The position numbers were made by a program, and so were the translations under genes. The notes under the pieces are model-generated. The model had not been told where the DNA came from and made no database searches. It saw only the letters and a list, made by a program, of their open reading frames with translations. DNA of 64,000 bases from Bilabrum cf. latius. Lineage: Eukaryota. Location: the NCBI GenBank assembly GCA_965178125.1, contig OZ237738.1, positions 124,001-188,000 on the forward strand, read 5' to 3'. Below, one piece after another: positions 1 through 58,900 of the stretch (its first letter is position 1; every line of letters starts with the position of its first letter).

Positions 1-1869
1 CTGGGGGCGCACGGGGAGGGGTGGGAGCTGCTGGGGCAGCGGCCCTGGTGCTCCGCGCCCCCGCTGCAGCAGGCGCGCACGCGTCCCCTGCAGCGGGACC
101 CAGAGTACCGCTGGAAGCGCGAGTGGAGCAAGGAGTACCAGGGCGAGGGCACAGGGGGAGCGGGAGCTCGGGCCAGGGGTCCGAGCATCAGGCGCGCGAA
201 GGGGACAGGGCCAGGGGACGGCAAGGAACAGGAACAGGGACAGGGGGCAGGCGCCTTCTCCGGTGGTCGCCTCGCAGCTGCCGCCCTCACGGGCCGCAAG
301 CGCAAGCGACCCACAGACCCAAGGCGCAGGTGGGCGGAGCGCAGGCGCCGAGCCGCCGCGGAGGACTCGCTGTACATGCTGCGCCCCCGCATCACGAGAG
401 ACAAGGTGCTGGCCCTCGACAGGATACCGCTCACGTAGAGGTCCGTTCAGTGGCGCCGGTCCGCTGCCGCCCAGCTGGCGGGCAGGGCGGCCGCCCAGGA
501 GAGGGTGCGCCGGGAGCGGGTCACGGGCCCGCTGGCCGGGATGGCGCTGGCGGCCGGCGCCGTGGGGGTGCCGATGCCCAGGTCGGGGTCGTTTGCGCGC
601 GCCGTGCTGCGGGGACAGGGGCAGGTGGCGGACGAGGGCGCCGTGGACGGGAGGGGCCACGGGGTCGCGTACGGGCCCCGCGTGGGACTGGGGCAGGCCG
701 TGCTCTCCGAGACGCATGCCGTGCACGCAGCTGCCTTCCCCGGGGGCGCCCCCGTGCGCCTGGCCACCGGTGACGCGCTCGGGCTGGGCGAGGAGGCCAG
801 GGGCTCGGCTGCCGCGGTGGCTCCCGGGGGGTTGTTCACCGGGTTCCACCGCCGGAGCGCGCCGAAAGGGGCGGCGCACGCGCGGCGCAAGGGGGACATG
901 GTGCACGGGAGCGCGCCCCTCGGGTGGATGGCTCGGTGGTCGGACGGGTCGGGCGACCCCGACCTGGCGGACAGGGGCGTGGTGGGCCGCGCGTCTGCGC
1001 CCGTGCGCAGCGCGGTGATGGCTGACTCGGCCTTTGCGAGGATCGGAGGGGGGGCGGGGGCCAACGGTGCCGCGCCCCGAGCCGCTGTCGGCGGTGAGGC
1101 GGCAAGCGGGGCCGCTGGGTCTTCGTCTTCTTCTTCCTCCTCGTCGTCGTCGTCGTCGTCTGCTTTTTCGTCCAGGGCGGGCGGACATTCGGTGGGCGGC
1201 GCCGGCGCCGGCGTGCACCCGGACGACACGCAGGTGGTGGATCCAGCGGGGTCTCGAGCGGCGGGGGACGCTCTGGGCTGGGTGCGGGCGGTGGGGCGGC
1301 GGGCGGAGGCTGCGAGCGGGCTGGGGCGGGGGAGCGGGGCGCTGCTTCCGGCCGAGCAGCGGGCGCAGGGGCTGCTGGGCGGGCTGCAGGGGTCGCACAC
1401 GGGCCTCATGAAGCAGCGCGCGGCCTTTGTGTCGTCCACCGGGGGGCCCGTGGGGGTGGTGAGCGGGTCTGCGAGCAGCGGGCAGTCGGCCAGCGGTGCC
1501 TCCGCGAGCAGCGGACAGGGGCTGCCGCTGGGCTCTCTGGCGGCAGCTCACGCGTCCAGCGCTCGCGTGGACGAGACGTACGCCCTGGAGGACTCTGATG
1601 ACGAAAACCTGCTGCTGTCCGCGCACGCCGCCACGGCCGACTGCCGGACGGGCTACGACGGGACGGACGAGACTCCTTCCGCGCCGCTGGGGTCGAGGGA
1701 GAGGTGGGCCGCCAGCATGGTGGAGGGTGGCAGCAAGGGGGTCGGGGCGCTGCAGGCGGCCGACCGCACCGGCTGGCTGAGCACCGCCGGGTTCCACCCC
1801 CAGGCCGGCCGGGACTCGGCGGCTTTCCTCTTCCACCAGCAGTCTCTCGTGGACCAAAAGCTGCTTTGA
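1..1869 (+). CDS. Hypothetical low-complexity protein, 5' end outside window
   Basis: Frame 1 is open from base 1 to TGA at 1867-1869 except for one TAG (436-438). Ala/Gly/Ser-rich with a poly-Ser tract; no recognisable domain. Confidence 0.6.
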
Positions 1870-2002
1870 AGACAAGATACCAATCATTCGCTGTTGTGAT
1901 TCTGTTTCTTGCTGTTGCCTGGCGGCCCGTACCCACTTGTGCTGTGGCACAGGATGGCATGGCTTGGCCTCATGCGCTCGAAAGAAGCTACTTTAGAAAT
2001 AT

Positions 2003-2384
2003 TCATGCCTTCCACAGCAATATCGACACCCCCTCGTACACAGACAAATAAATATAAGCCTTAAGCTTCTGCGTTACGAACGCCCCAAACGATTTTCCAA
2101 CGATACAGTTCCATCCCTTGCCCTTCTCTTTGTCGCATCGCTCGCGAATTCGCTCAGCTAGCTTTGAGTATACCAATGATGCCGGAGGATTTGTCTTGAA
2201 AATATCAATGCATAGTTCCTTGATTTCAGCTTCGTCTTCCTCGCTGAGGTCCTCGGCTGCGTAGAGTGCTAAGCTAACACGGTGCGATGGATGCTGCTGT
2301 GAAACCCCTGCAAAAAGGCCAGGCTGGCGGGCCAAGGTCACTTCAAATCTCACCGTACACAATTGGCTCTTTTCTCATCGGCAT
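2003..2384 (-). CDS. Dynein light chain type 1 (LC8 family) protein, 2 exons
   Basis: LC8-type motif 'LAERIRERCDKEKGKGWNCIVGKSFGAFVT...YIYLSVYEGVSILLWK'. Predicted ATG 2384 and GTGAG...CAG intron 2257-2353 give MPMRKEPIVY/AEDLSEE. Ends TGA. Confidence 0.85.
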
Positions 2385-2527: not shown

Positions 2528-4550
2528 ATGGCGAGTAAGGTTGACGATGATGCGCTCGCAAGGGCATCTACTGCAGATATTACCTCGTCGCGTATCCGGG
2601 AGCTGGAAACGGCCATCATGGAGCACCAACTGGACGAGGACGGCGGCCTTCCAAGCAGGCGCGTGTGCGGAGCAGCCATGGATCTATGCCTATTGTACAA
2701 TGCCTGTGCGAAGGACGCCATCGTAGACTATACAGCTTCAAAGGGACAGCGACCCGAGAAAAAAGCACGCAGCCGCTCACGGTCTCCTCGGGCAGCCCGG
2801 CCTGGTGCAGCGACCAAATCCAAGGCGGCAGCTGCGGACGAGTACGACACCAACCCCGCGGTGGGCTACTTGAAGAGAGCCACGACCATGCTGGAATCGA
2901 AAACCCTGTTTCCATCGTCCTAGCTCAGGCGGCGGCTCCTGGCGGTGACATACAACAACCTCGCGCTCTACCACACGAGACGCACTGCGCGCATCCACAC
3001 CGCGCTCGTGTACCTCGACGCGGCGACCGCGCTTGAGTTGGACATCGTGCGGCATGCAGATGCAAAAGCGCGGCAGCACGCAGAGTACTACCAGCGGGTT
3101 GTCTCCCGGCAGTCCGCAAGACGGGCCGCGGCCGAGGCCACCGGGGGCCACTACCACGACGGCAGCGGGAGGGCACTGAGCCCCCCGCGGTCCCCTGGCG
3201 TGCGCATGGAGGAGACAGAGGCGGCGCTGAGGGGCGTGCGGGAGAGGGCGCGGGCCAGGGGGGCGGATCCCGGAGAGGTGAGGGGCTACGTGGTGGGGCC
3301 CGGGGACGTCCCACGGAGACACCCTCCCCCGCGCGGGAATTAGGGGGGTGAACGCAAGGGAGCAGACAAGGGTGGGGATGGGGCGGGGAGCTACTCAAGT
3401 AGTGCGGCCCACGAGGCCGCCAAGGAGGCCTCTAGGGGCCTGCAGACCGCCCTCTTGGCCTGCGCCGCCGACAGGAGGTCCCTTGCGAACACGTACGTGA
3501 ACGCAGCGTGCGTCTTGTCGCAGCTGGGCAGGCACAGTGAGGCGCTGGAGCGGGCGCAGGCCGCCGTACGGCTGCTGGAGAGCGTGATTAGAGAGGTCTA
3601 CGGCAGCGGCGGCAGCGGCGGCGCAGAGGGCAAGGGTCTGCAGGAGGGCGAGAGTGCGCTGGAGCTGGGCGCCCTCCTTGTCTTCGCCCTGCACAACGAG
3701 GGTGTGGAGCTGGAGCACCTCAGGAGGTACAGGGATAGCGAGTGGGTGTTCGCCAAAGCGGTGAGGGCCGCCGCCGCCTCGCTGCCGCCGGGGCACCCCG
3801 CTGCCGAGGCGGTGGCGGCTGGTCTGGAGCACGTGAGGGCAGCGGCAGTGCACGGCGAGAAGCGGCTGTCGGAGCGGCGGGGCAGGGGCGGCGTGCCGAG
3901 CCACTCGGTGGGCAGACGGGGCCGTGCAGGCGCCTCGACGTCCTCCCCCCGTGTGGGTGTTGGTGTGGGGGGGGCGGGCAGGAAGTAGGTGAGGAGTCCG
4001 CGCGCCAGGGACGTGTCACCCCGTGCTCCTCGCATTCCCAGGTCTGCAGTGGAGGAGGAAGAGGGGGTTGGCGAAGACGAAGAGAAGGAACGGGGGGAAA
4101 GGATGGCGGCCGGGCCTAGGGCGGTGGGTGCTAGGGCTCCTCGATCAGGGGTTGCGAGCGGGGCGGCTGGGAATCCCAGGAGGGCAGTGGGCGGGTCCAG
4201 AGGGCCTGGTGCTGAGAGGGCGACAGATGAGAGCAAGGGCAAGGACAAGGGTAACGGCAAGGGCAGAAGTAGCAAAACATACCAGCGTGGATAGAACTAG
4301 GGTGTAGCATCGCGGGCAAAAGATGCTGAGCAGCAGCAGCAGAAGCAGCAGCAGCAGGATGACAAGCGGTAGACGAGGAAAAGGCCGCCGTATTAGGAAG
4401 ACAAGGATCTTGCAGATTTGGATGCAGCGGCTGATGCGTACGTGGGCGGAGACACTGCCGCAAGCGACGCGGATGCAGATGCAAGCTAGGGTGCCAGCGG
4501 GGCACTTCACAGTGTGCATGATGACGGCGATGCCGGAGGGGCCGCGGGCA

Positions 4551-4608
<58 letters not shown>

Positions 4609-5188
4609 GAAGGAAGTTGTGTTCGCAGACCAACCAGTCGTGCACGGTGCCGGTGCCAGTAGGGGGAACGAAGGGGGTGGCAAGCGCTCCGACGGGGACG
4701 GGCCAGCGCTCCCGGAAGCAGGCAGGATCCAGCCGCTGGACGACACCGGCAGGCAGCCCTCGTCCGATGCAAGGCAGCCGTCGAGGCCCGCCCCGCCGAG
4801 CCGGCCCACACCCCCCGTGCGTGAGAGCAGCGAGGAAGGGGGGGCTCCAGTGGTTTCGGAGCGGCTGGAGCTGGAGGGTGACCCCGGATATGGGGGTGAG
4901 GATGGGGGGGGGCAGGGCCGGGGGGTGGCGAAGACACCGATGGCGAGGGTGAAGATCTGGGGGGAGGACGGGGGGTAGGGGTAGGGCGACGGTGCGGGGG
5001 CGGGGGTGGGGGGCAAGGAGGGATCAGATAGGGGCGTGGCTGTTCCCCGGACGGCCCCCGATGGGTCCAAGGACTCCGGATCCGTGCAGGGGAAGGACTT
5101 CTCGGCCATGTCCTCTGATGCGGGGGCCTCGGCACTTCGGCCGCCCACAGCCCCGGAGGAAAGGCTACTTGCGATGCTAGACGCCTGA
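2528..5188 (+). CDS. TPR-repeat protein with long disordered C-terminus (10 in-frame TAG)
   Basis: TPR-like helices 'LLAVTYNNLALYH', 'LANTYVNAACVLSQLGRHSEALERAQAAV', 'ALHNEGVELEHLRRY'. ORF pieces 2480, 2945, 3455, 3989, 4514 and 5006 share one frame, are separated only by TAG, and end at TGA 5186-5188. Confidence 0.8.
4554..4608 (+). repeat. (CAGGGA)n hexamer microsatellite encoding poly-GQ
   Basis: Tandem GGGACA units read directly; in frame within the TPR gene. Confidence 0.9.
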
Positions 5189-6733: not shown

Positions 6734-9700
6734 ATGAAACTGATGAAATCGATTTCATTATTCTTTGGATCCATGCTTACTACTGCCCTTGCTGACCCGG
6801 CCTCCTGGTGCCCAGGCGTCGACAAGCCACCATTTCAAGTGTTTCTCGATCTCACGTGCAACGAGCAAGGCTGCCCCGACATGGAATAGTTCCATTTTAC
6901 CACGAACCAGCTTTCGTAGACTGGTCATGGGTGCAGACTGCCTGGCTGCAAGCCGTGGTCCCAAGGGGACTTCCCCCAAACGAGCCCGAACGGAACGATC
7001 TAGAGCAACGGCGGCGTGCCACAGGCAGCGAACTTTTCGCTTCACGTCTAGAAGCTGCTGAGTAGCGTGCAGGACTGGATTCCATCCTCAGATTGGACTG
7101 GTAACGCGGTCTTCGACTTCGAGTCTTGGACGCCGGTGTTCGAGAGGAACGATGGGTCTGGCACCTGGCACGGCGATGCTTACTACGATCGATCGCTGGA
7201 TCTGGTCAAGCAGCAGCACCCTGATTGGACGCACGCGCAGCTCGTTGCTGCCGCAAACGCTTCTTTCACCGCGGCGGCGGTGGAGTTTTTCGCCACGACC
7301 CTGCGGACCGTGCGGTCGATGCGCCCCAATGCGCTGTGGGGATTCTACGGCTTTCCACAGAACGACTACTACCCGTGCGACAACACCACAGGCAGCGACG
7401 GTTCTCATGATGTCTCATACAAGTGCGGCTACGAAAGCTACAAGGGCCCCCTGATGCGCGCCCAGAACGACCGCCTAGCCTCGGTGTGGGCCAACAGCAC
7501 CGCACTGTACCCGTCCATCTACCTGCCCCCGCGCCCCGCGGGCTGGCCCATGGACAAGTTCGTCGAAGTCAACCGAGAGTACGTGCGGACCGTGACCCAA
7601 GAGGCCGTACGGCTGACTCGCAAGCATGGATCGGGTCCTGTGCGCCCCTTCGCCTGGTCCTTCTACCACAACGGGAGCCGCACGCTGCAGGCCGCGGATG
7701 TGCGCAACCTGCTCGAGGCAGCCTACCAGCCCCCCGAGGTGGACGGGGTGCTGTGGTGGGGGTCACCTACCTTCTTCAACCTGACAGACTACCAGGCGTT
7801 CGCCAACGACACCCTGGGTCCCATCGTGCAGGGCTTTCTAGAGGACAAGTGCCAGTGCGCGAGGGAGAGCTGCGGCGGGCACGGGGCCTGCCTGCCATCT
7901 GGTGGGCAAGGCTAGTCCGGGGCGGTGTGCGCGTGCTTCGAGGGCTGGTCAGGTCCCGACTGCTCCCAGCCGAGCGATGTACCCGTGGATAGGCATGCTC
8001 AACAGTCGTCCCCAGCGCCTGCGTCCTACCCATCGCCAGCAGGGTTCGATCCCGCACAGTCCGCGCCTGCGTCCTACCCACCGGGCACGAGGAGTGCCGT
8101 GGGTGACCCCGGCATGCGGCTGGCCCCCCGCGTGCTCATGGAGGGGTGGACCTTCTGCAACCGAGCGGGACCCGACTGCGGCGTGGGGCCCAGGTGGGCC
8201 GACTGCGCGCCGGACCAGGGCCAGCCAGCAGGCCCTGGGCCCAGCGGGAACCTCGTGTCTCCCGCAGACAACGCTGCAGGGCTCAATGCCAGCGCGCCCC
8301 AGTCGCAGTGCGACCCATACACGCAGCAGAAGGAGCGCGATCTGGGCGCCCTGTGCGAGCGCAAGCCAGGCTCTGGTGCGGGCAACTCGTCCTTCTTCTG
8401 GACGGGCATGCTCAAGTCAGGCAACATGGACGACAATCAGGAATGCAAGCTATGCGGGCTGTGGTGCGAGCCGGACTGCTGCCCCAAGCAAGGCGCCGAT
8501 AAGGCAGAGTCCTCCGCTAGCACCAGCGGCGGGGGGACCAGCCGTTACAGCGCGGACACAGCAACCGAGTACGCTCTCCGGGGGTCCAGACTACCGAACG
8601 ATGGCGTGCACGGCAAGGCGACCAGACGGTCGAGGTCAAGCAGTGGCCTCCAGTTTGACAACAAGCCCATGAATCAGCCCATCGTGTCGCAGGAGTGGAC
8701 CACGAGCAGCGGACAGGGGTCCTCCCAGTCTTGGGAGGGTGCCATATTCGGGACGTGGGACCTGCCAGTGTACCAGACCATCGCTGCCGTGCGCACGCTC
8801 GCCGAAACCGGGTCCAAGGTGCCCTGCAGGGAGTATCCCAGCGTGCCTGCAGCCCTGTGCTCTGCATCAGACAGCAGCGAGACCAGCGGGCCAGCCGGAA
8901 GTGCCGCTGCCCCTACAGCTGCTTCTGTTTGCGACCTGACCGGCGTCTGGGTTGGCACGGACAGGAGTCACGCGATCTCAGTCGCGCAGGTGAACGGCTC
9001 CACAGACGGGCGTCCTGCTGTCGCACTGGCTAGGGCAGAGCCGTGGGGGGACGTGCTGGCCACGCTCACGATCACACCAGGGCAAGGTGGCGCGGCGGAC
9101 ACCGTCGTGATGAGCAGGCCGGGAGAAGGAGACGAGACGGGGACGCTGTCGCCGGTCAGTGGGTCCTCGGGTCCGTGCACCGGCATCCAGTGGAGCCAGG
9201 GGTCGTCGGTCACGTGGTGCCGGTCCAGCGCTCAGTGCGATGTCCCGTCCCCTGGCCCCATCGAGCAGTCCTCTTTCTTCCAGCAGGACTGGCGCATGGC
9301 CCCCATCCCGGCCGCGCCATGGGAACACGAGATCAGCAGCGCTGGTGACCAAGCGACGTCTAAGTCATCCTCGTCACAGCCCCGTCTTACGTACCGATCC
9401 ACGATGCGCACCAGCCAGCACTACTCGTGGCTTATGCTGTACTTTGGCGCCGATGCAGCGCAGGGTTCCAAAGGCGGCTATCCGTGGGACGGCCGCGGCA
9501 TCATGTCCACCCTTCCCGTGTCCTCGCCCCACCTCCCCAACGCGACCAACGATGCATTCCGCGCGAGGTTCTGGCTCAACATCACCACCAGGCAGTCGCT
9601 CGGGAGCTTCTACTTCTAGAACTGGGCCTCGTGCTGGAAGAACAACGGCAGCCTGTGCGACGGGGACCAGAGGTCAGACGTGACCCGGTACATCCTGCTG

Positions 9701-10279
9701 GACCTGAACGCGAAAGCCATCGGCAGGGGGCCCCGAGGAGAGGCCCTGACCTGCGGGCCCGCACCCGATGAGCAGCTGCTGTGCCCCGCGTGGCACGTGC
9801 TGGCCTCCTCGGGAGAGCGCGTATTCCCCAACGACACGGCAAGGTTTCCCTACGATGCGTACCACTACGTAGGCGGGACAGGGAGGGTCGGGCGGCGCAT
9901 TGGTGGCGCCGTCGGCAGTGGTGGAGAGAGTCATGCCGTCGGTGCGTACGAGTACGGGGTGCCGTCCTCATCGCCAGTGGGCCACTTCGACTTCTTCAGC
10001 AACCCCTAGGAGCAGGACTTCATTAAACTGGCTCCTTCCGCGGAATGGGCTGCCTTTGGGCTGCCTGCATCGGTGCAGGACGGCATGAAGCCGGGCTGGT
10101 GGGACGTCAACGTGGGCGGGGTGACTGCGCGGGTTCCCATGGACGGCATGGAACCCAGCCACCGGATTTGGACCACCGTGAACATCGGCCCCGAGATGGG
10201 CATCGGTGGGGAGTGTGCTGCTCAGTTTGCGCAGTGGGAGGTCGCTGGATACGACGTGCTGGCCCAAGGGAGCCAGTGA
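6734..10279 (+). CDS. Secreted GH56 hyaluronidase-like + EGF-like + plant-type Cys-rich domain fusion (7 in-frame TAG)
   Basis: Signal peptide MKLMKSISLFFGSMLTTALA. GH56 motifs 'NGGVPQAAN', 'GNAVFDFESWTP', 'RPNALWGFYGFP', 'STALYPSIY'. EGF 'CGGHGAC...CACFEGWSGPDC'. Then 'DPGMR...EGWTFCN...WLMLY...SCWKNNG..CDGD..DVTRY...FPYDAYHYV...SNP*EQ'. TAGs at 6887, 6917, 7001, 7049, 7913, 9617, 10007; ends TGA. Confidence 0.85.
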
Positions 10280-10389: not shown

Positions 10390-10450
10390 TCTGTATAGCC
10401 TCAGCTCCAGGTCCCCACGGTTTCTGTATAGCCTCAGCTCCAGGTCCCCA
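10390..10450. repeat. 28-bp direct repeat (33-bp period) duplicating the GH27 stop-codon region
   Basis: TCTGTATAGCCTCAGCTCCAGGTCCCCA at 10390-10417 and 10423-10450. Confidence 0.85.
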
Positions 10451-11891
10451 TGTTAGCATCTAGCTCCAGAGGGCCATGCGAGCCGGGTGGGAGCAGCAGC
10501 AGCGGCTCCGTGCCTGCCCCTGCAGACAGCCCCGTCACAACTAGATCTCCGCCCTCCCATGGCCGCAACTGCGTGCCGTTCCGCAGCGACTGCACCCCCC
10601 AAGGGTGCTCCTTGGACGGGAGAGGCACGCCCGTCTGCACTGGCAGAGCATCGGGAGGCAATCCGAGGTCGATGGGTGCAGAGCCGGTGTTGATCCAGAC
10701 TGCCGCCCAACTCCCGCCGGACAGCTGGCGGGCCCACACGTTCGCATTCTGAGGCACACTGGCAGACGCGCGAGCACTGTTACCGTTGGCAGCTGCACCG
10801 TATTTCTAGCTTTCGCTTGCCTCGCCGAGGTCCACCTCAGGAGCAGCAGAATCACTCGCCACCTCCTCCGCTGCCTCGAATCCAGTCAAGTTGCCCCCCA
10901 CCACGCGGAGGGGCGGTCCAGGGTTGGGGTCCTGGTTCACAGCGATCAAGAATCTGTTCCCCCACGCGCCCCGCTCCTCAACGGACATGTTCGTCACATC
11001 CCCCGAGATGAAGAGGGGAGCACCGAGCACGCCCCAGGCATCCATCTGGGCTCGCACGTGCCCGGGCTTGGGGTCGTTCCAACCGCCCAGGCAGTGCGCA
11101 TTGCGCGGCGCCGCGGATCCGAACAGCAGGTCGGGGTCGGCCCATGCCCCGGGCCCGGAATGGCCACCCGCAATGGAGAGCACATCCAGCGCCTTGCTGG
11201 TGCCCCAGTCGCCCGCCCCCCAGAACCGGACGTCGTAGGCAATTCTGCACGCGTTGGCTAGTTCGGCACACTTCGGTCCCATCCAAGAGGGCCCTCCTGA
11301 GGCGCCGCCCTTGCTCGTGCCGGGCGAGTGGCCGCAAGTGGAGTAGAAAATCGGCACGCCGGTCGCATTCAAAGCGTCTCGAATGCGGGCGTAGCTCTGT
11401 TCAGCCGCAGCTCTGCTGTGATCGCCGCTCATGTCGTCCACTTTGAGGTATTGCGCACCCCAGCTCGCGATGCTCGCCGCGTCCTGCTCCTCGTGTCCTT
11501 GCATGCCCGGGCCTTTCGTGATCGTCTGTGGCCCGCGGTCCGAATAGATGCCCAGCTTCAGGTGCATGCTCCTTAGGTGCTAGCTCAGCCACGGAATACC
11601 GCGCGGAAAGAGCTCGGGGTTCCACGTAATGCTCCCATTCGGCTCGCGGTCTTTGGAAATCCACCCGCAATCTATGACGAGGTACTCGTACCCAAGATCG
11701 CGGAGACCTGTCGATACCATGGCGTTGGCTGCTTCTAGAACGAACGTTTCGTTGGGACAGCAGCCAACAACGTCGTAAGTATTAAATCCCATTGGGGGCC
11801 GAAGCCCGAGCCCGTTGTTGAGCCCATGTGCAATGTGCAACAACTTGAGCGCCACCAGCACGGCTCCTGCGGCTCCTTGCACCGAAAACAT
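10434..11891 (-). CDS. GH27 alpha-galactosidase / alpha-N-acetylgalactosaminidase (2 in-frame TAG)
   Basis: Signal peptide then 'LNNGLGLRPPMGFN', 'YLVIDCGW', 'FPRGIPWLS*HLRSMHLKLGIYSD', 'WGAQYLKVD', 'GPGAWADPD', 'IAVNQDP', 'VWARQL'. TAGs at 11580 and 10806; ends TGA. Confidence 0.9.
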
Positions 11892-12229
11892 GCGTGTGGT
11901 ACCCACAAATAGGAAACAGCGATTAACCCGTACGATAAGCCTTGCAGCAATAAAAAATATGGTCGAGCGTTTTTTTGTTGCGGTCACGGTGAGACCACGA
12001 ATTTGGAGTTCCATTCGGCCTCATCATCACAGCTTGTGCACGGCAACTGACTTGCCGTGCATCAACTGTCACGGGAGGCCGTGCAAGGATCGGATGAATG
12101 CAAGATCTTTTGATGGATCCACTTCATGGCATCGATCTGATCTGGGTGCTCTCAATCAATTCCGTGGCTGTTCCTAGCGGGCTAGGCTGGTTGCCGTGCT
12201 TGACTTGGTCACGTTCCCTCCATTCAGGC

Positions 12230-15967: not shown

Positions 15968-16258
15968 CCGATGGGCCAAAAACGGATCGGAAACAGTGGC
16001 AAATACGATTTTTGTAACGAGCGGTTTACCCTGTGCTACGTGCTTACGGCTCGTGGATTCGCCGCCCTTATTTCTGGCTTTTTAGGTGAGATTCCGCTGT
16101 CATACGTGATGAATTCCATTATTTGATACATGATTATCGTAGCATCTTGGTCGATTAGTGAAAAGAAACGCAATTAGTTCTACAATATTGCCAGTCTCAT
16201 TTGAATGTGCTCGCCCTGCTCATTTGCTCGTGTTGCGCAGGGATTCTACGGAGTCGTT

Positions 16259-23041: not shown

Positions 23042-23270
23042 GCAGGCCCTGATAGGCAGGCTGTGCTGCTGGCATTTTGGCGTGTGCGGCGAGCTATGCA
23101 TGTTTCGCTTCTATATATAAGTATTCCACAGAGTAGAACACCCGAAAGGTTGCTTTCATTTGCACTGGCCTTTCCAGGTGCATCACATGGTGGCGGCCCA
23201 CTGGCAACTTGGCCTGGAGAATCTATTCCCCGCGTGCAGATCACGCCAATACTGCTCACTAAAGGTGTTT

Positions 23271-25364: not shown

Positions 25365-25392
25365 TTGTATTAGACAATTAATCCTAACCTTT

Positions 25393-34924: not shown

Positions 34925-34952
34925 AAATATAAGGATTAATTGTCTAATACAA

Positions 34953-44840: not shown

Positions 44841-44992
44841 ATTCGGTGGTCTGGATGGCTTTGAGAGGCGCGTCAATTCTGAATAATTTTTTAGAACGTA
44901 CACGCCACAAACGGCCTAAAACGGGCGAGCAATTTTCAAGCGCAGGTAGCAAGTGTGGACCACTCATTTTAAATATTTGGCGAGTATATCAA

Positions 44993-47900: not shown

Positions 47901-50194
47901 CTCCAGCTGCTTCACGCGGAGGTAGGCGAGGCAGCAAGGGGTCAAATCGAGGCGGCGGGCGCCCTAGAAAGCAGGCACCACCTGCACGCACCTCGACACC
48001 AAAGAGCAGCAGGGCTCGCAAAGGAACTCTGGCGTAGTCGCAGAGGCGCGGCGGGACTCCCACCGTCGCAGGGCCAGCGTCGAAACAGAAACAGAAAAAG
48101 CAGGCGCGCGCTTCCAAGGCGCACGAAGTGGTGGACGCGGTTCCTGCCGACCGGAGCCTTTGCGTGCAGTTCCACCGCCTGCTTCGTCTGCTGTGGAAAG
48201 GAAAGTGGGCGGCCATATCCCCATGGGGATTCAGGAAGGCCGTGTGGAGGTTTCTCCCGGAGTTTCGGTCGTACCAGCAGCAGGACGCGCAGGAGTTCGT
48301 TGTGGCGTTTTTGAACGCGCTGCACGAAGAACTGAGGCGGGGAGGGGCCGCGCCAGGGTCAGAGATGGGGCTAGCTCCCTCCGACCCGGTAGCGCACTCC
48401 GCATTCCTCCGGGCGGCCGCCTCTCCCCAGAGAGAGGACTTGCCGCCTCTGCTGGCCCTGCCTGCAGCTGCCCAGGAAGGGCTGGGAAAGCAGGTGCAGA
48501 GCCCAGTCGCACAGGGGAGGACGAGCGGCACAGGCAGCAGGACACTCAAGCTGCGTGGGGGTGCCAGGACGAGGGGAGCCGGTGGCCCGGATTCTTCAAC
48601 GCGTCGGTCCGGCAGGGCCCGCCGAGCCCCCGAGCGCATCGTGCCGGGCCCTCCACCGCCGAAGCCACGAGCAGCCAAGAAGCCGCAGGAGGGCACCAGT
48701 AGCACGGGTGCCGGACTAGCCGGGGCGCGGTCGGGTGCTCGGGGTCGCACTCCAGCACGGAAAGGCTCCGAGTCGCCACCCTCTGCAAAGAAGCGCCGCA
48801 TCATCACTAAACCTGCAGGAAAGGCCGAGAGCGTGGTATCGACAATGAAAAGCAAGGGCAGGAGCGCGGGTCGGCAGGGCAGTGCGCGAAAGAAGGGCAG
48901 CACCGCATCAGCTGGAGGGGCCCCTGGCAGAGGCAAAAGCAGCCGCACAGGATCAAAGAGCGCCCGTTCGAAATCTGCACGCAAGCCCCGGTCATCCTCC
49001 GTGCCGTCTGCCGCTGGCAGCGATGAGGTCGACGACGACCGCCCTGCCGTGACCTTTGAGCTAGAGGAGGACGACGGCTCGCTGATCAGTCGTATCCCCC
49101 TGTTCCACCCGAGCGGCTTTGTGGGGGGTTGTCTGTTTGGGTCCACAAGGGCGGAGACCACGTGCAGCGGGTGCAAGAACGTATCTGGGCGGGAGCACGA
49201 GTTTGTGTGCCTCTCTGTGGACATTGATGAAGCCAAGGCGTATGCAGACTCCGATGGTGACGCTGCATCGAGATAGGCCGTGCAACGGAGGATAGAGGCG
49301 GGTAAACTAGTGTACGATCGGCTGCAGTCGGCGGCGGGCGTGCTGGGGGCCAGCTTGCAAGGCTAGCTTGGGGCGTCATCAATGGACGAATCGATCGACC
49401 TGTCGGCAGCGGGGTCACCACCCGAAGAGGAGGCCTCGGCTGCGAGTGGCGCCGGCAGCGACTCGGAGATGCCCCCGCCGCCCAACGCCAGAGGCAGGTC
49501 TAGAATGGCGGCTCTCCTCGCGGATGCTGGCTCTCCCGCGCCAGTTGGGGGTCCACGGCTGGCCTCTCGTCGCAGGCGTCCGTCTCGCAGCAGCCAGGTT
49601 CCGGTGACGCTCGAGGCGTGCCTACGGAAAACCTGCGCAGCTAGCTCGTTGTCAGGCGACAACCAGTACCACTGCGATGGTTGCCGGGGCAAGCGGGATG
49701 CGGAGCGGAGGGAGCTCCTGTCCAACCTGCCGCAGGTGCTCATCGTGCACCTCTCCAGGGCGTTCTGGACGGCACGCGGCAAGACCAAGAGCCAGGTGCA
49801 CGTGGATTTTCCGATGAATGGGCTGGATCTGGCGCCGTTCTGCTCGAAAGAGGCCACGGTGAAGCCCGACCCGCGAGCGGAGAGCTTCCGCGCAGCTGCA
49901 AGGAGTGCGGCCACGCCAGTGCGGGATGTGGCTGCATCGCTGCAGCAAATGAGCGGAGTAGAGCCGCAGTCCTCACAGGCTGGCGTTCCGTCTATTCCAC
50001 TGTACCACCTTGCCAGCATCGTGGTGCACCACGGCCGGGGCATTGACAAGGGCCACTACACTTGCTACTGCTACGACCGGGCCAAAGCAGTATGGCTGCA
50101 CTTTGATGACGCGCAGGTCGTGGTGTGTACCCCGGAGCAAGTGGCAAAGGTGCAGGCGTACCTGCTGGTGTACGTGCGGGAGGACTCGCTGTGA
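44993..50194 (+). CDS. ZnF-UBP + USP (C19) ubiquitin-specific protease, USP3/44/49-like (about 14 TAG)
   Basis: 'CPHV...C..CGTTSNLLICLHCGTIRCGR...HMATHF...FCYRCDD'; Cys box 'GLTNLGNSCYM'; 'QQQDAQEF'; His box 'VVHHGRGIDKGHYT', 'WLHFDD', 'QAYLLVY'. One frame from ATG 44993 to TGA. Confidence 0.88.
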
Positions 50195-50341: not shown

Positions 50342-52045
50342 TCACCATGAGTCTGTCCACAAAAGCTGCGGCTCTGGCGAGGCACTAGGAGGTTGACGGA
50401 ACCCGGTCGCCGAGTCCGGGGACCGTCCCACCCCGCAGGCGACTCCCATGTGGCCGTTGCCCATGGGGATGCATGCTACAGTGCGTGCCGATAGCCCCCT
50501 CTCTCGCAGTTTTGGGCCGCGACGGCCATCAGCTCCCTTTGCTGCGTTGCCAGATGTTGGCGCCAGGAGCGGCCCGCTTGCATCCACAGGCCCGTTCCAA
50601 GACACGCCCACCCAATAGGCCCTCTCACGCACCCCGCCCCTGTGCGGCACGCCGTTCCATTGCCCCGATTGGTCAGTCCACCCCCTCACCGGAACAACCT
50701 CTAATGCTTCCACTGGCGAGTCGCACACCGCAAGAGGCACGTGCCAGTGGGGGGATCCGTCGGCGGGTGCAGCCCACTGCCGCACCACGCCGTCCATGCT
50801 GGAACTGAGCAGCACCAGGTCCCCAAGGTTAGAATCGTCGACCGGTGCCCCGTTGCTGCTGCAGTTGCTCCATCCCTTGGCCTGCGCATCAAGCAGCGGA
50901 GGCATGGCTCCGCGAGTCACGAACCTGACGCCGGTGACCTCCTCATATCGCTGGTCTGACACATCGCTGCGGTTGTGGACAAGAGAACGGCGGTGGTGGG
51001 CATCCAGCGGGATGGGGCGCACAGTACTGCTGCCCCCTGATGTGCCTGCTATGCCATTCATGCGACGAAGAGCAGTTGACCGTGCCGACTCTGCGAGCGG
51101 CTGACCGCTCTTTCGCAGGTCCCACAGGACGCACTAGCCGAATGAGTTGCCTGTCGCGAGAAGTGGGGCGCTCGATGCGATGAATCGAGTCGGCTCTCCT
51201 AGCTGATGCATTATACTTGCTGCAGCTGTGCTTGGTGCAGGCAGGGCAGCAGCAGTATTGTCCACAGACCACGCGGGCTCTCTGTCCCAAGGCGGCCCTT
51301 TCCCTTCCTGGCTCAAGGCCAATCTCCCTGTTCCCTTGGCAGCAGCGGCGCTGTTTTGCTCCTTCCGATGCGGCTGCAGATGCACCGGCCGGGAGCATTC
51401 TCCTGGCCACCACAGGTCAGCCGCCCGCTCTATGCTGCCAATGGAGCACTGGCACACGCATGCCGCTCGGCGCACCGCTGCTCCCTCTCTCCCACTCCCC
51501 GCGCCCCCCGCAGCCCCCGCACCCCCGGTGCTGACCCGCAGGTCGAGGAGGAGAGTGCCTGCGCGCGAGCAGCTCACCAGGGCGAAACGGCCCCACGAGA
51601 GCAACCGAGCACGGAGCACCTGCCCCGCCCCGGGAGCGATGCGACTTGACCAAGAGGCCGCATTGGAGAGGGCAGTGCTGTCTCCTGGCGATGACTCGAG
51701 CAGCCGGCACGCGTCCAGACCGGCCAGCATCGTCGGCGCGCCTGCGGCTCGATCCGCGGGGCTCGGTTCCAAGCGGGCGCACAGAGTCGGTGGGTCGCTG
51801 CGCCCCCAGCTGCTTGAAATATCATGCGCTGTCGCTTGTCTGCGAAGCCGAAAGCTGGTCCAAGCGACCGGCCTCGCACTGTCCCCGGGCATCACGGTTC
51901 CGATGTGGATCGCGCTGCTACCACTTGCGGCAGCCATAAGGCCACAGCGCACCCTCACAGGGGCTACAGATGCAGGCAATATCCCTCGAAAAGGCTCAGT
52001 CAGGCATACTTCACTGTATCTTGCTTCCGAACTTCGCCTTGGCAT
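50342..52045 (-). CDS. Degenerate WD40-repeat protein (1 TAG at 51134); start uncertain
   Basis: 'LLATGNSFG*CVLWDLRK' and 'LLSSSMDGVVRQW' are WD-like repeats. ORFs 51134 and 50342 share a frame; ends TGA. Confidence 0.6.
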
Positions 52046-52450
52046 TGCAAGCGATCCAGCTGCATGTCTCCACGTTCGGGTAGCTACTGATGCGGCACCA
52101 CAGGAACCAGAGGTTGCCAGTTTCCATTGTAGCAGAGAGAATTTCCTCTTCGAAGATTTTGTAGAAAATTGTGTGCCCTGTTGGAGCACCCATGGCCTCG
52201 CGATCCTTCTTTGAAGCCATGTGCTGTTCAGCGAGTTTCTCCAGGATGATGATACTTTGCGCAGCTACAGCCCGCCTTCCAAGCCAACGAGGCTGCAGAT
52301 ATCGCTACGTATATCATCAGACATGACAACTTCACCCATGTATCACAACGATAAGGGTGCCATTTGCGTAGGAACCGTGCGACGACCTCATTCGTCACCC
52401 GCAGACGAAGGCGGGCGGCGCGTCGCACGCCCATCAACCGAAGATCCAGC

Positions 52451-53680
52451 ATGGCAGCCGCTGCAGATTCTGGCAAAACCGAGAGGATTACCTACAAAAG
52501 TCTTCACTCATTTGTTTTGGACACGCTGACCAAAGAAGGCCTACATGAAAGCCCAGCAAGGGACGTTGCCGACGGTTTGGTCGAAGCAAGTCTTCGAGGC
52601 GTGGATACGCATGGAATTGCGCTACTTGGGCACTACGTTCGCGATTTAAGGGCTGGGGGGATCAATAAGAATCCAAAGTACAAGATTTCGAATCCGTTCC
52701 CCTCGCTCGCCGTCGTTAGTGCCGACGCAGGCCCTGGACTGTCGGCCGGACGTTACGCGATCCGCGAGGGAATCAAGATTGCAAAGGTGCAGGGCGTCTG
52801 CTCCGTTGTTGTGCACGACTCTACCCATCCGGGTGCTATGGCGTTTTTCACGCTAGAGGCCGCCAGGCAAGGGTACATCGCGTGGGCTATGACTAACACC
52901 GACAAGAAAATGGTGGTGCCTGGATCAAACAAGGCCTACTTTGGTACAAATCCCATCGCCGTAGCTGCCCCGAGGACCGACAGAGACCCATACTCTTTCG
53001 ATGCAGCGACAACTTCCATCCCTTTCAACAAGGTGATGGTGTGCCGCCGGGCGGGCAAGCCCACGCCGCCGGACGTAGCCACGGACGCTGCGGGTGTGCC
53101 TACAACGGATGCAGAGGCAGCCGCCTAGCTGCTGCCTCTGGGGGGCGAGCGGTTCGGTTACAAGGGCCACGGCCTGGCGAGCATTGTAGAGATGATGTGC
53201 GCCGTGCAAGCAGCCACCCCGTTCGGCCCGAATGTGCGCCCCATGTTCGGGTCCGAGAGCCGGGCAGACGACCGGAGGGACCTGGCGCACTGGTTCCTCG
53301 TCATGCGACCTGATGCCATGGACGTGTTCAGGGGCATTGCCGACCCCGGAAAGCCACCACGAGCACACGGGGAGAAAGGCGAGGGAGGCGATGCAGCAGG
53401 CGACGATACCGATAAGCCTGCCAGTGAGGAGGGTGCTAAGGATTTCAGGGGCCGGCTGCAGGCCATGACAGACGAGGTCCGGGGCCTCCCCGAGGTGGCC
53501 CCAGCAGAGGGACACTCCGCCCCTTCGACGGGTTTCGCGAAGCCCGGACTGGCTGGTGACCCGCAGACCGGGCATGCTGCAGAGAGGGGCAGAGACGGCA
53601 TACCCATCCCGCCCGAGACTGCAGCTGTGTTCGCCAAGCTGGCAGAGGAAACAGGGGTGGTGCCCGAATACATCGCTTGA
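52451..53680 (+). CDS. Ldh_2 family (AllD/ComC/malate-L-lactate type 2) dehydrogenase (1 TAG at 53126)
   Basis: 'LVEASLRGVDTHGI', 'STHPGAM', 'FGTNPIAVAAP', 'FDAATT', 'AAA*LLPLGG..GYKGHGLA', 'GIPIP'. Ends TGA. Confidence 0.88.
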
Positions 53681-53785: not shown

Positions 53786-53813
53786 CATTCATTCATTCAT
53801 TCATTCATTCATT
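53786..53813 (+). repeat. (CATT)n microsatellite between convergent 3' ends
   Basis: About 7 tandem CATT units. Confidence 0.85.
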
Positions 53814-53924
53814 TGGATTGCCGCTGCCGACTGCACGCCGTCGCACATGCACGTTGTTTGCCACCGCCCGCACTAGCCAAATTAGCTGTTCGACTAGCTC
53901 GTCAGCATCAAGATCAGGCCAAGA

Positions 53925-55709
53925 TCAGGCCACAGAATGCAGCAGGCCTTCTCTGTCTGTGCCATCACCGGCAGGCAGGTTAGGGTACCCCGCAGTCTGC
54001 ACCGGCGTGCGCAACCCACCGCTGGAGGACCCGCCGAGCCCAAGCCTGACCGCCCCCGCGCCCGTCGATCCGCCCGCGGTATCCCCGGTCGTACTGTTCT
54101 CCCGCGCCCCTCCGTGTTCCCTGAGCAGCTGCCTGGCCACCTCTGCCTCAAGGGCCTCGAAGAACGCCCCCCCGTCGTCCTCCCTCTGCAGCGCGCCACC
54201 CATGCCGCAACGCTCCGTGAAAAAGAGTGCGGCGGCAAACAGAGCAACATCAAAAAGAGGTGCCCCGGGCTCGCATAAAGCCCTGGACACTGCCATCGCA
54301 GCTCCGACGGAGTGGGCAGCGGCTGCGCTGGGAGGCTGCCCGTGAGCGTAGGCAGACCTGCTGCCCATCGTCATCACGCCGCACCGCTCCCCAATCTGCT
54401 GCATCTCGTCACCCCAGCTGCTGACTCCGCCGCCACTACCACCCACCGCCGCCACTCCGTCCTCAGAGCCGCCGGTGCTGCCCAACTCGTTGCTGTTCCC
54501 TACCCCAGCTGCACCTCCCGCACCCGCGGTCGCCCTGGTGGACAGGGCGCCTTCGGGTTGCAGCGGGCGCGCCCCATCCAACCGGCCGCGAGGAGCAAGC
54601 ACCACCGGGCTAAAATCGACTCCGAGTTGCTGGCCCCTGCGCCCCGTTTCATCCCCGCCCTGTCGCAGTCCCCACTGCCCCAGCCCCTCGCCGTCCGATC
54701 CCTTGGGTCTCTCCACCTAAAATCCCCTCGCGACCAGAAACCGCTCTGTCCTCCTGGTCCGCAGCTCGTCTCGGAATCGGATGAACCGTGCCACCTCCCC
54801 ACTGCTGACCACCGAGCTGACCGACCGCCGGAAGTACGTCCCCATCCGCGTGGCCACAAGCGCGTCATCCGTGAACCAGGGGAACGGCCAGGCGCGCCAA
54901 TCCGACCCAAAGACCTGCTGCAGGTTCTCCCAAGGGCCCAAGTCGTATGACGATGCCCTCCCGCCGCTGGCCTCAACCGTACTGAGGTTGTGAGAAGCGA
55001 TGTAGAGGTGGCAGCCAAGGAATCCAGTGAGCGAGATTGCAAAAGATATGGACAGTACCACAGAGAGCATGCCTCCCAGGCCTGGTTTCCACGAAGCGCC
55101 GCCCATTGCATCCTTGTACTACTATCTAGTATACAGCCCCGACAACAAGAATAACTCCTGCCTGCAGCAAAAGGCCGTATAGAACCCAGTGAGTGCCGTG
55201 TAGGCAACGAACAGCAAGAAGCTCTTGTAGTTGCGGTAGCCGGCCACGTTGGAAACCCACGGACAAGTGTGGTCAAATTTGAGAGCGCACTCGCCCGTCA
55301 CAGAGTCGTGCTTGCACCTCGGCGGCTTTGCTGCCTGGCACGTTCTGCAATGCAGAATGCCTGTCGGGCCAAGCACCGGCTGGACGCGGCCCCGCTGCCC
55401 CGGCCGCACACCAATCCCAGCTGGTGTAGGATGGGCAGTTCGATAAAATAGCGGGGAATGCCCTGGATGCGTTAGTGCCGTCTTGAGGTAGGCCCAGAGA
55501 ATCATGAAAATTAGGGCTGTCAGCAGCACGAACTGCACAGCGCCACAAAATGCCATGAGAGAAGACTGCTGGGGCTACTATATGACCCAGAAAAGCAATA
55601 AATAGCGGATTCCGACCTCGACGTACACCATGAGAACAAGGCCAACGACTAACAGAATTGGCAGAACTGCAAGCCACCGCATAATCCTGTATCGGTGCCA
55701 AGAAATCAT
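53925..55709 (-). CDS. DHHC-family palmitoyltransferase (DHTC variant; 5 TAG including two TAG-TAG pairs)
   Basis: Two N-terminal TMs, 'CRTCQAAKPPRCKHDSVTGECALKFDHTCPWVSNVAGYRNYKSF', 'NLSTVE', 'YDLGPWENLQQVFG'. ATG 55709, TGA 53925. Confidence 0.88.
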
Positions 55710-55980
55710 GCTGCCGCTAGATTACGTAGACCAGTCACAAAGCTACGAGCTTGCCAATGTTGGCTGTCTCGACAGGCGTGGATGTGCGTGCCTCAAGGGC
55801 ACTGACGGCTCTTCGAATTGACGGAACCTTCACCGCAGCAGCCCTCGTCTTGAAGTTGCTGGCTCCGTTGACGAGGTCTTGCGAACATGCTGGGCCAATA
55901 AACCACTGAAGCAGGTCAATACACCATCCGTGGTAGATCGAACACGCAAGAATTCTATATTTTGTCACGCAAATACAAAC

Positions 55981-58900
55981 TCAACGAGGAGGTGGCGGGT
56001 GTCCCCCCGGACCGCCCATGCCCTGGGACCCCCGAGGCATTTGTACCACTCTAGACTGCATCTGGTACTGTGGATAAGCGATCTGCCCGTTGGAGAGCAT
56101 GACTGCACCGGGAGGCAGCACACCGGGGGCCCTGGCCTGCATGGGCACCGCCATGCCCTGCACCTGCACCTGAGGGGCCGACGGATACACAATCTGTCCG
56201 TTGGGCAGCATGGCGGCACCGGGCGGCAGCATCACCACGCCACCGCCCCCAGCCGGGGGGGTGGGTGGTGGAGCTGCATGCACGTAGGTCACCGCCGTGC
56301 CACCACGCACTGCACCCGAGTGCATGGGCATGGCAACGGACCTCCCCCCCATCCCCCCCCCCATCATCATGGGCACTGTCCCCATCACCATGCCCTGGCT
56401 GCTGCCAATTGCAGGCATCCGACCCCCCATGGGCATTGACATGGGCATTGACATGGGCATGGACACAGCAGTACCCGCAGGGAGGCCAGCAGAGGCCCCA
56501 GAGAGGCTGCCTGCAGTAGGCATGTGCATGCCTGCAGAAGCTCCCCTGGCACCTGCCCTTCCCACCAGCTGTGGCACGCCCCCAGCACCCACATGGAAGT
56601 ACGAGCCGGGGGCAGTCGATGCCCCGCCTGCTGCCCCGCTGCCCGCAACAGCCCCAGCACCGGCGCCGGCCGCGCCCTTGCCGTGACCATGGCCGCCCCG
56701 GGGGAGTGGGCTCCTGGCTCGGCCCGGGACACCAGTCGTGGTGATGAAATCTGACGTGCGCACAGGAGCCGACGCCTTCTCCATTTCCTTCTCTCTCTCC
56801 TTGTCCTTCTTCTTCTGCCTCCTCTTCTTTTTCCGCGGCTTCTTCTTGGGGCCCCCGGAAGCATCCCCACCGCCGGAGTCATCACCGGTCCCATGCCCCT
56901 GCCCCTGCCCCTGCCCCTGCCCCTGCCCCTGCCCCTGCCCCTGCCCCTGCCCCTGCCCCTGCCCCTGGCCTTGGGCATTTGGGTCGGCAGGCCCGTGGGC
57001 AGGCGACGAGGCAGTTGAGCTGGGAGCAGAGCCTCCAGTGCTGCCCCCATCCTTGCCCTTGCCTTTCCCCTTGCCCTTCCCCTTCCCCTTCCCCTTGGTC
57101 CCGCCGACTTCCCCGGCAGCCGCAGCCTTGGCGGCCGCAGCGGCTCGTTTCTTGGCCTTTGCCTTCTTGCTGCCCACCAGCCCAGCGTCCTCAGCCTCCT
57201 CCGCTGTCATCGAGGTCCACGCGAACACCCCGGCGCAGTCGCGAAGACACACCTGCGGGTTGAACGGGTGGTTGGTGCCCACCTGGAACACGCACGGCAG
57301 CCGCTGCATGAGCCGCTTCAGCCCACCCAAGTTCTCTTTGACTCCGTCTGGAAACGCATCGGAGCCCGTGATAGCGCGGAGGGCCTTGCCCACCTGCGCC
57401 ACGGACAAGGTCCCTTTGCTCCGTAGCAGGCGGAGCAGCACCTGCGCCACGCCGCCCGCCGTGGCCACTCCGGTCGCCGTCGCATGGGACAGGTCGATGG
57501 CCGCGTCCATGACGGCCTCGTTGCCCTGCAGGGGATCCCAGTCGCCGTCCTCGGCCTCCTCCCCGCTGATCCACGAGGACGCCATCGAATCGGAGCGACG
57601 CAGCCGCATGAGCCGGCTGGGCTGTGGCCGCCGCTGCTGGCTCTGTCCGGGACTCGACAGCCTCGACGGCTCGGAGCGCATGCTTCCGTTGGCGGGGGGC
57701 GCGTCCCCGCCGCTGCCTCCGTCTGCACCATCCGACTCGGGGATATCCACCATGGCCCCGCCGCCGCTGGGGGAGCCGTATTGCGGTGAGCCAGCTGGCG
57801 AGGCTCCTGCCATGCCGCTGCCGAGCCGGCTGCGAGATGCGGTGCGCACCACGCGCATGCCGCCGGGGGCCTCGGGAATGCTGAAATCAGGGGCGTCACT
57901 GGCATAGCTGGTCGCGCTGGCCAGCGGGGCAGCGGCGGATGCGTCGTCCAGACCAACCCCCGCTCGCCGGCTGCTCCTGTTGGCTCCCTCCTTGCCATCA
58001 TCATCATCGCTGCCACCGCCGCCGCTGCTGCTGCTGCTGCTGGACCCGCCTGCGTATTTCCACCCAGAGGATCCCAGCTCGACTCCGCCGCCGCCGTCAT
58101 CGCTGGAGAAACCCCCGCTGCCACCAGACAGCCCCGACAGCCCCGATGATCCAGACCTGCAGCCAGCCGTCCACGCATCTGGCCCGCCCATGGTCAAAGG
58201 CCACAGATCACTCGCGGTGCTGCGCGCGTCGCCCCACCCCGCAGGCGACGGCACAGCCTGCCCCACGCCTCCCTCCCGCACAGCGCCAGACCCGGCAGCG
58301 CCGTGCCCGGATGCCTGTCTCCTTGGCGATTGTCGTCTTGCGCCTGCGCCAGCCCGTGCCGAGGCAAGCGCTGCTTCGAGCGTGACTGCCAGCACCTGTG
58401 TCTCGTCACCCGCCGTGCTCGACTCCGAGGAAACCTGCCCGCTGCCACGTTGCGCGATCTGTCGGCCCGCCGCGACATTCTTCTGCGACATCGCGGGCGC
58501 GGGCGCAGAGGCCTCCGACGCCAGCGGGCTGCCTGGATACGGTGCCGCGCCGTCAGGTGCGTCGCTGGCGTGGTCGTCGTTGCCGCGTGATCCGGCATGC
58601 CTCGCGGGTGCGCTCGTGAGCAGCAACAGCGGGCCGTGGGCCCTGCCCGAGTGCCTGCGCCGCTCACCCCGCACCGCGTCCAGGGCGGTCTGCCTCAGCT
58701 GAGCCGACTGCGCGGACATGTCTGACTGGGCCGTCAGGAGGCGCGCCCGCGCTGCTCCGATGTTCTCGCGTCCTCGCCGCACAGGACTGGCGGCACCATG
58801 GTCCAGAGCCGCCTGGCTGGCCCTCTGCAGCTGCCGCAAGCGGTGCACAGCAGCCCTGACCGCGATCGAGTGAGACTCCCAGCGGGTCTGCAGAGCGCGA

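Follow-up and report, generated by a model that had tools for sequence, protein, structure and literature searches.

The closest described counterparts of the code considered here are the nuclear genetic codes in which UAG alone changed its meaning. As the relevant sections of two papers describe them (PMC11687900, PMC5304391), UAG became Leu in the rhizarian exLh, Gln in Iotanema and Ser in Scotinosphaera. Within the ciliates, UAG alone is read as Gln in Protocruzia tuzeti, Hartmannula sinica and Trochilia petrani and as Leu in other phyllopharyngeans (PMC11687900), and one ciliate with two different reassignments is also named (PMC11687900, PMC5304391). The first-pass annotation of the DNA studied here had set it beside Iotanema, a rhizarian and phyllopharyngean ciliates as UAG-only cases, and this framing agrees with what these sections report. 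We analysed a 64-kb stretch of eukaryotic nuclear DNA (hereafter the window), which has a GC content of 62% and is densely packed with genes. The results indicate that this GC-rich, intron-poor protist, whose nearest named relative is Cafeteria, very probably reads UAG as Gln, uses UGA as a working terminator and keeps UAA out of its reading frames. It joins the UAG-only-to-Gln codes, among which it is unusual both for its new host lineage and for termination that was seen only at UGA.

Each of the described codes shares some features with the window and differs in others. In Iotanema spirale (Fornicata), the only change is that of UAG to Gln, UAA does not serve as sense and UAG is never a terminator; however, its transcripts end in UAA in 104 of 119 cases and in UGA in 15 (PMC5304391), whereas TGA was found at 20 of 20 gene ends in the window. 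Iotanema is, moreover, a metamonad, while the window comes from a GC-rich, probable stramenopile. Hartmannula, Trochilia and Protocruzia use NCBI table 15 (TAG = Q, TAA and TGA as stops) and resemble the window in that TAG is spread along the gene bodies like the other Gln codons, but 93.5–100% of their aligned C-termini lie at UAA (PMC11687900) and none does in the window. The window organism is not a ciliate, and it has ordinary GT-AG introns and 62% GC, unlike the UAG-only ciliates. UAG is likewise decoupled from UAA in the nuclear genomes of exLh and Scotinosphaera, but there it means Leu and Ser, respectively, and UAA makes up 56 of 71 stops in exLh (PMC5304391, PMC11687900). In the ambiguous codes of Condylostoma and Blastocrithidia the reassigned codon also ends genes, whereas TAG ends none of the 20 genes in the window.

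The coding sequence curated from these 20 genes (Table 1) amounts to 18,722 codons; two genes were spliced according to contig joints (see below) and the 5′ half of eep2, the second of two endonuclease/exonuclease/phosphatase-like copies, was left out. The in-frame counts in this set were 102 for TAG, 0 for TAA and 0 for TGA, beside 628 CAG and 132 CAA codons. The total length of open reading frames (ORFs) of at least 300 aa was 15,281 aa under the standard code and rose to 35,992 aa with TAG as a sense codon, while taking only TAA as sense gave 16,086 aa, hardly above the standard value. The ORFs opened by reading TAG as sense were 2672, 2278, 1948, 1577, 1564, 1283 and 1193 aa long. Since these lengths make sense only with TAG read through, TAG has to be a sense codon. 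In the SNF2 helicase gene, the SNF2, RING and Helicase_C domains follow in the same frame downstream of TAGs at aa 801 and 1208, and the UCH domain of the ubiquitin hydrolase USP comes after 12 in-frame TAGs, with those at 49274 and 49364 lying inside the UCH region. Up to 5 of the 102 TAGs (45002-45383, in the 5′ region of USP) may precede the true start codon; the first in-frame ATG of this gene (44855) is 15 nt from the start of the sulfatase gene on the opposite strand (44840). The view of the first-pass annotation that UAG is sense and UAA is not was thus borne out by 102 in-frame TAGs against no TAA, and TAG is a general sense codon behaving as Gln in the window.

Contigs of four sequencing runs were aligned on positions 36001-56000: X1 (genome-like), X5 and X6 (from one study) and X7 (from another study). 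Contigs of X5, X6 and X7 join across eight intervals, and none of these joints occurs in X1. Seven of the eight skipped intervals have CT..AC ends, which correspond to GT..AG on the minus strand. In the eighth, the joint from 44544 to 44750 carries 17 extra letters in three runs, belonging to a sulfatase microexon of ~19 nt near 44644-44662. By these joints, the tetraspanin-like gene has three introns and the sulfatase gene six. Because their contigs skip introns, X5–X7 were read as transcript-derived. No run showed a differing letter anywhere in 36001-56000, and the ten TAG codons covered by contigs (two in the tetraspanin-like gene, one each in the sulfatase, ATG22 and Ldh_2 genes and five in the DHHC gene) appeared without any other letter. 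As the intron-skipping contigs carry the TAGs unchanged, we concluded that they are not edited. It is extremely improbable that the TAGs seen in frame escape translation as TAG because of U-to-C RNA editing, pseudogenes or assembly errors. The agreement of three intron-skipping runs from two studies speaks against it, as do the interruption of the frames by TAG alone (102 TAGs versus no TAA and no TGA) and the retention of TAGs between the paralogues parA and parB. In the same alignment, all four runs piled up on part of USP (45339-46005, around 45896-45941), where the contig depth was hundreds of times that of the flanking sequence and loose ends were numerous; the sequence there is a short acidic GAG/GAC-rich coding stretch, which matches many other places or organisms.

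The amino acid specified by TAG was approached through homologous proteins and through paralogues. At the TAG of ATG22 (39834-39836) the alignment column holds Gln in 21 of the 21 homologues with a residue there (24 were aligned, the two closest included). For the GH56-DUF7705 protein, a full HMMER search yielded 149 usable representatives, and Gln was the commonest residue in three of its seven TAG columns (13/37, 30/45 and 8/20). When the log-odds were summed over ten columns (seven from GH56/DUF7705, one from ATG22 and two from SNF2), Gln reached +13.1 bits, followed by Glu with -4.0. Structures and remoter homologues contributed little: in a PDB alignment of the GH56 domain one TAG column is Gln in two of four chains, while those of Ldh_2, melibiase and DHHC are variable or gapped at the TAG positions and do not identify the residue. 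Similarly, a homologue search with the SNF2 part gave 893 matches of 21–42% identity, in which the TAG columns are variable or gapped.

Two pairs of paralogues lie in and around an inverted duplication (25176-29686 / 30325-35141), the arms of which are 86–98% complementary and carry parA and parB, encoding a 1500-aa membrane protein, head to head and also take in the 3′ ends of eep and eep2. A series of seven tandem 16-aa units (PTRVDPGRxYPWAT..), each with an in-frame TAG, occupies 30869-31159 in parB and is absent from parA. The alignment of parA with parB contains 28 rows with TAG, five of which have TAG in both genes and eight have it opposite a gap. In blocks with conserved flanks, TAG stands opposite CAG, CAG and CAA (three of three), and in the corresponding blocks of eep and eep2 opposite CAG, CAA, CAA, CTT and AGG, three of these five being Gln codons. 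Thus, six of the eight paralogue exchanges with conserved flanks are between TAG and CAG or CAA.

Several observations weigh against this reading of the code. In the other four GH56/DUF7705 columns Gln is not the commonest residue (5/80, 11/114, 5/43 and 0/22): at residue 106, 38 of 114 proteins have Glu and 11 have Gln, and residue 962 is L, P, I or V, with Gln in 0 of 22. At aa 1676 of the SNF2 protein, Glu is found in 19 of 39 homologues and Gln in 3; the melibiase TAG column is Asp in four of four PDB chains, and that of Ldh_2 is Met or Ala in the PDB alignment. Twelve more rows of the parA/parB alignment set TAG against non-Gln codons, and these lie in barely alignable parts, as judged by eye from the alignment. 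UAG might mean another amino acid, e.g. Glu or Leu, and the two columns in which Glu prevails (GH56 residue 106 and SNF2 aa 1676), the Leu/Pro column at GH56 residue 962 and the Asp column of melibiase would be in line with that. Such a meaning is nevertheless very improbable in view of the invariant Gln column in 21 of 21 ATG22 homologues, the lead of Gln over Glu by 17 bits in the summed log-odds and the CAG or CAA codons in six of the eight conserved-flank exchanges. In the queries of the homologue searches each TAG was entered as Q; this may have nudged the alignments slightly and cannot create an invariant column. The intron-skipping runs are labelled as RNA only as a guess, one of them being given as “probably DNA”; the lineage assignment derives from ATG22 and no other gene; and the sample consists of one 64-kb window with 20 genes and 0 tRNA genes. 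Finally, eep2 has an in-frame TGA (24147-24149) within an insertion of ~95 aa relative to its single-ORF paralogue eep, and no intron of the consensus GT[AG]AG..CAG was found across it. An intron of atypical type could account for this TGA, as could decay of the copy or the presence of two genes rather than one.

The reading of UAG as Gln and UAA as something other than sense depends on how consistently TAA is missing from the frames. Synonymy of TAA with TAG would predict 21.4 TAA codons from the CAA/CAG ratio and 14.6–41.5 from the other NNA/NNG pairs; the observed number was 0. The Poisson probability of this outcome is 4.9e-10, or 4.9e-9 after removal of the 11 TAGs that were copied via the tandem repeat or the inverted duplication. 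Outside the reading frames TAA is frequent: the 6,871 bases of non-coding DNA contain 125 TAA and 252 TGA triplets on both strands, and out-of-frame coding positions contain 91 and 527, respectively. Among the 111 ORFs of at least 50 aa that end in TAA, the top coding score belonged to an exon end at 44164-44592(-), a further exon end at 40046-40636(-) scored about zero, and none of the others scored like the genes of the window. The TAA at 44164-44166 is in the GTAAG donor of the sulfatase intron 44020-44167, an intron that contigs of three runs skip. That at 40046-40048 lies in a 110-nt ATG22 intron with GTGAGT..CAG ends (39960-40069); this intron, deduced from the shift in frame and a tblastn comparison using the Cafeteria protein, is not among the contig joints listed. 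Both apparent TAA stops had been placed in introns by the first-pass annotation, and both proved to be intronic, the one at 44164 by contig joints and the one at 40046 by frame change and homology. Its further statement that exons lack in-frame TAA even though CAA is used also stands, with 0 TAA and 132 CAA in the 18,722 codons. TAA is, therefore, not a silent Gln synonym in the window.

These counts bear directly on ordinary code 6, in which UAA and UAG would both mean Gln and UAA would have fallen out of use through GC bias. With NCBI code 6 (ciliates, dasycladalean algae and hexamitid diplomonads) the window shares UGA as the only terminator seen and UAG as Gln. The GC-rich genome and the under-used third-position A (NNA/NNG ratios of 0.14 to 0.41) are also in its favour, and most nuclear stop-to-Gln changes hit both codons (PMC5304391). 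However, UAA as a sense codon, the defining feature of code 6, is represented by 0 of 18,722 codons in the window versus the ~21 expected. Even the lowest NNA/NNG ratio (CTA/CTG, 0.143) still predicts 14.6 TAA codons beside 102 TAGs, and over expectations of 14.6–21.4 the probability of finding none is about 5e-7 to 5e-10. Moreover, CAA is used 132 times and no coding-like ORF requires read-through of TAA. Ordinary code 6 does not fit because TAA is excluded far beyond GC bias, and we consider it very improbable; the earlier separation of this code from code 6 with GC-biased usage was thus supported within this one window.

The role of TGA was evident at the gene ends. The first-pass annotation had reported TGA at 20 of 20 gene ends, and the present tracing likewise gave 20 genes and TGA in 20 of 20 (19 listed ends and the dynein light chain ORF, 2003-2374(-)). 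Where a profile reaches the C-terminus, it is completed just ahead of this codon: Dynein_light attains 86/86 at the last residue, directly before TGA, UCH is complete (254/254) 6 residues before it and Sulfatase_C (127/127) 14 residues before it. The tetraspanin-like gene, which has the highest contig depth in 36001-56000, also ends in TGA. When TGA alone was taken as a stop, the long ORFs gained nothing at their 3′ ends, and the TAAs crossed were only 5′ of start codons (at 6695, 16084, 30227, 52352 and 55724). Beyond the 19 listed TGAs, back-up TAAs were not clearly enriched in frame: within the first five codons TAA occurs only at +5 in parA and parB, which represent one event through the duplication, and the remaining two in-frame TAAs are at +19 and +27.

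A dual-meaning code, in which TAG would also terminate some genes, has to be weighed against the same gene ends. The carboxypeptidase gene has a TAG five codons before its TGA, and a TAG of ATG22 falls within the non-conserved C-terminal tail, either of which could be regarded as a hint of such use. However, TAG is needed as a terminator in none of the 20 genes, a result with which rare use is compatible in so small a sample, and profiles or homologues continue to the TGA for UCH, Dynein_light and Sulfatase_C. Since ~0.5 TAG is expected in the last five codons over 20 genes at the observed TAG density, one TAG near a gene end is unremarkable. Terminating TAGs are therefore highly improbable.

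By analogy with other stop-to-Gln codes (PMC5304391), a mechanism can be proposed for UAG as Gln with UGA as terminator. UAG would be decoded by a tRNA-Gln(CUA), a single anticodon change away from tRNA-Gln(CUG), and this tRNA would pair with UAG and not with UAA. The N-domain of eRF1, with its motifs GTS, NIKS and YxCxxxF, would no longer recognise UAG. No tRNA-Gln(UUA) would exist, so that UAA, according to this proposal, never became a sense codon. That UGA was the sole stop seen could reflect GC pressure, perhaps with weakened recognition of UAA. The window itself holds no tRNA gene detectable by ARAGORN and no Rfam match at the gathering thresholds, nor is there any rRNA or eRF1 gene in it.

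As to UAA, the first-pass annotation had held that the window cannot tell a rare stop from an unused codon, and indeed 0 of 20 TAA ends fits either. The probability of this result is 0.36 to 0.12 if the true share of TAA among stops is 5–10%, and 0.04 to 0.0003 for shares of 15–33%, which correspond to neutral TAA:TGA ratios. The absence of TAA ends is a weak indication that UAA is disfavoured as a terminator. Given that UAG is Gln and UGA terminates, we slightly favour UAA being a functional but rare stop codon, while an effectively unassigned UAA is a lesser, though serious, possibility.

A more radical alternative, which we regard as rather doubtful, takes UGA as the sole functional stop and UAA as unassigned, with no cognate tRNA and with poor or no recognition by eRF1. 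Here, a UGA-specific release factor would be present as in the ciliates with UAR = Gln, and only tRNA-Gln(CUA) would have arisen. This alternative shares its core with the reading preferred above and differs from it only in the status of UAA. In its support, TAA is found at 0 of 20 stops. In non-coding DNA and at out-of-frame coding positions TAA stands to TGA as 125:252 and 91:527, respectively, and the neutral share of 15–33% derived from such ratios is that for which 0 of 20 has P = 0.04 to 0.0003. The tetraspanin-like gene, with the deepest transcript-like contigs, ends in TGA, and in the published UAG-only cases for which the cited sections give counts UAA is the main stop (56/71 in exLh, 104/119 in Iotanema and 92–100% in phyllopharyngeans). 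On the other hand, 20 genes are few, and a TAA share of 5–10%, for which P is 0.36 to 0.12, is plausible at a GC3 near 0.7. No eukaryote with an unassigned former stop codon is known to us. All UAG-only lineages described in PMC5304391 and PMC11687900, as far as these sections go, keep UAA as a stop. If UAA were unassigned, 62 codons of this nuclear code would be sense, one would be a stop and one would be empty; such a code would be intermediate between the standard code and code 6, in a free-living and probably stramenopile lineage.

The lead to the host lineage came from ATG22. Its protein is 52% identical to that of Cafeteria roenbergensis (E 5e-139), the next named matches being fungi with 36%; on this one gene, the organism is probably a bicosoecid-like stramenopile. 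Cafeteria has ~70% GC and 1.7–1.9 introns per gene (PMC6972860), a GC-rich genome with few introns as in the window, but its ATG22 has Gln where the window gene has TAG. In the sections of PMC6972860 cited here, the only change mentioned is mitochondrial UGA = Trp, and no nuclear change appears there. Searches with the GH56-DUF7705 protein and the SNF2 part revealed no close named relative. The former is a secreted fusion of GH56 hyaluronidase with an EGF-like segment and DUF7705 (6734-10279); the best named DUF7705 matches were dinoflagellate and diplonemid transcriptomes, and three homologues of near full length were found, none of them close and none with the full architecture. A metagenome scan with ATG22 gave two distant loci of 26–27% identity. 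Fragments of GH56-DUF7705 homologues with 55–64% identity were present on metagenome contigs, and they end opposite CAG (Gln) codons, at residues 354 and 681. As a gene caller using the standard code would produce such ends, this metagenome relative may share an in-frame stop-to-Gln code.

The features of the window are collected in Table 1. The families recognised are GH56 hyaluronidase-DUF7705, alpha-galactosidase, cytosolic carboxypeptidase, UBA-SNF2-RING helicase, ATG22, sulfatase, zf-UBP/UCH ubiquitin hydrolase, Ldh_2 dehydrogenase, DHHC palmitoyltransferase, dynein light chain and tetraspanin-like, and several genes have no family match. Between two genes of the same strand, a gap of 1.5 kb (5189-6733) with 45% GC contains many TAAs and no convincing ORF in any frame. 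At two places, 25364/25393 and 34924/34953, convergent stop codons are only 28 nt apart, so the 3′ UTRs (untranslated regions) must overlap there.

Table 1. Genes and ORFs traced in the 64-kb window, with their in-frame TAG codons and terminators
Feature	Position	Strand	In-frame TAG	Stop codon	Remarks
g1	1..1869	+	1	TGA 1867-1869	5′-truncated; no Pfam match
Dynein light chain (LC8-type) ORF	2003..2374	-		TGA 2003-2005	PF01221, E 5.9e-17, profile positions 6-86 of 86
g2	2528..5188	+	10	TGA 5186-5188	Low-complexity; no Pfam match
Secreted GH56 hyaluronidase-EGF-DUF7705	6734..10279	+	7, e.g. 6887, 6917, 9617, 10007	TGA 10277-10279	
Alpha-galactosidase (Melibiase_2)	10434..12012	-	2	TGA 10434-10436	
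Cytosolic carboxypeptidase (Peptidase_M14)	12230..15967	-	3	TGA 12230-12232	
UBA-SNF2-RING-helicase	16205..23041	+	5, 3 of them before or between conserved domains	TGA 23039-23041	2278 aa
eep2, second endonuclease/exonuclease/phosphatase-like copy	23121..25364	+		TGA 25362-25364	Extra in-frame TGA 24147-24149
parA, large membrane protein	25393..29926	-	14	TGA 25393-25395	No family assigned
parB, inverted paralogue of parA	30245..34924	+	18, 7 of them in the tandem 16-aa repeat 30869-31159	TGA 34922-34924	
eep, Exo_endo_phos family	34953..36803	-	6	TGA 34953-34955	
Gene X	37391..38161	+	0	TGA 38159-38161	No family match; X6 and X7 contigs span 37461-38151
ATG22 transporter	38376..40393	-	e.g. 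39834-39836	TGA 38376-38378	At least 2 exons; intron 39960-40069
Tetraspanin-like	40692..41972	-	41955-41957, 41687-41689	TGA 40692-40694	4 exons; introns 41319-41410, 41507-41602, 41759-41855
Sulfatase	42181..44840	-	1, 42820-42822	TGA 42181-42183	7 exons; intron 44020-44167
Ubiquitin hydrolase USP (zf-UBP + UCH)	44855..50194	+	Up to 14	TGA 50192-50194	Start codon uncertain
665-aa gene	50342..52339	-	2	TGA 50342-50344	No family match; weak coding score
Ldh_2 family dehydrogenase	52451..53680	+	1, 53126-53128	TGA 53678-53680	
DHHC palmitoyltransferase	53925..55709	-	5, first bases 55580, 55577, 55124, 55121, 54719	TGA 53925-53927	
Large low-complexity gene	55981..63999	-	6	TGA 55981-55983	5′-truncated by the window end; 2672 aa seen

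Full-text literature searches, judged from titles and the beginnings of abstracts, turned up no stramenopile or bicosoecid for which a change of a nuclear stop codon is reported, and in a 2024 stramenopile review the one mention of “codon reassignment” is a reference on mitochondria. As far as these searches show, this would be the first UAG-only change in stramenopiles. Nuclear codes that split UAG from UAA are rare, and the present one would add a further, probably independent, origin. A GC-rich genome in which termination is borne by UGA is a natural test of how eRF1 drops UAG while keeping or losing UAA, and it is relevant to the influence that GC pressure may have on the survival of stop codons after a reassignment. 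There is also a practical consequence: gene callers that apply the standard code will fragment most long genes in this genome and in related metagenome contigs, as the metagenome homologue of the GH56-DUF7705 protein, which appears cut into fragments, illustrates.

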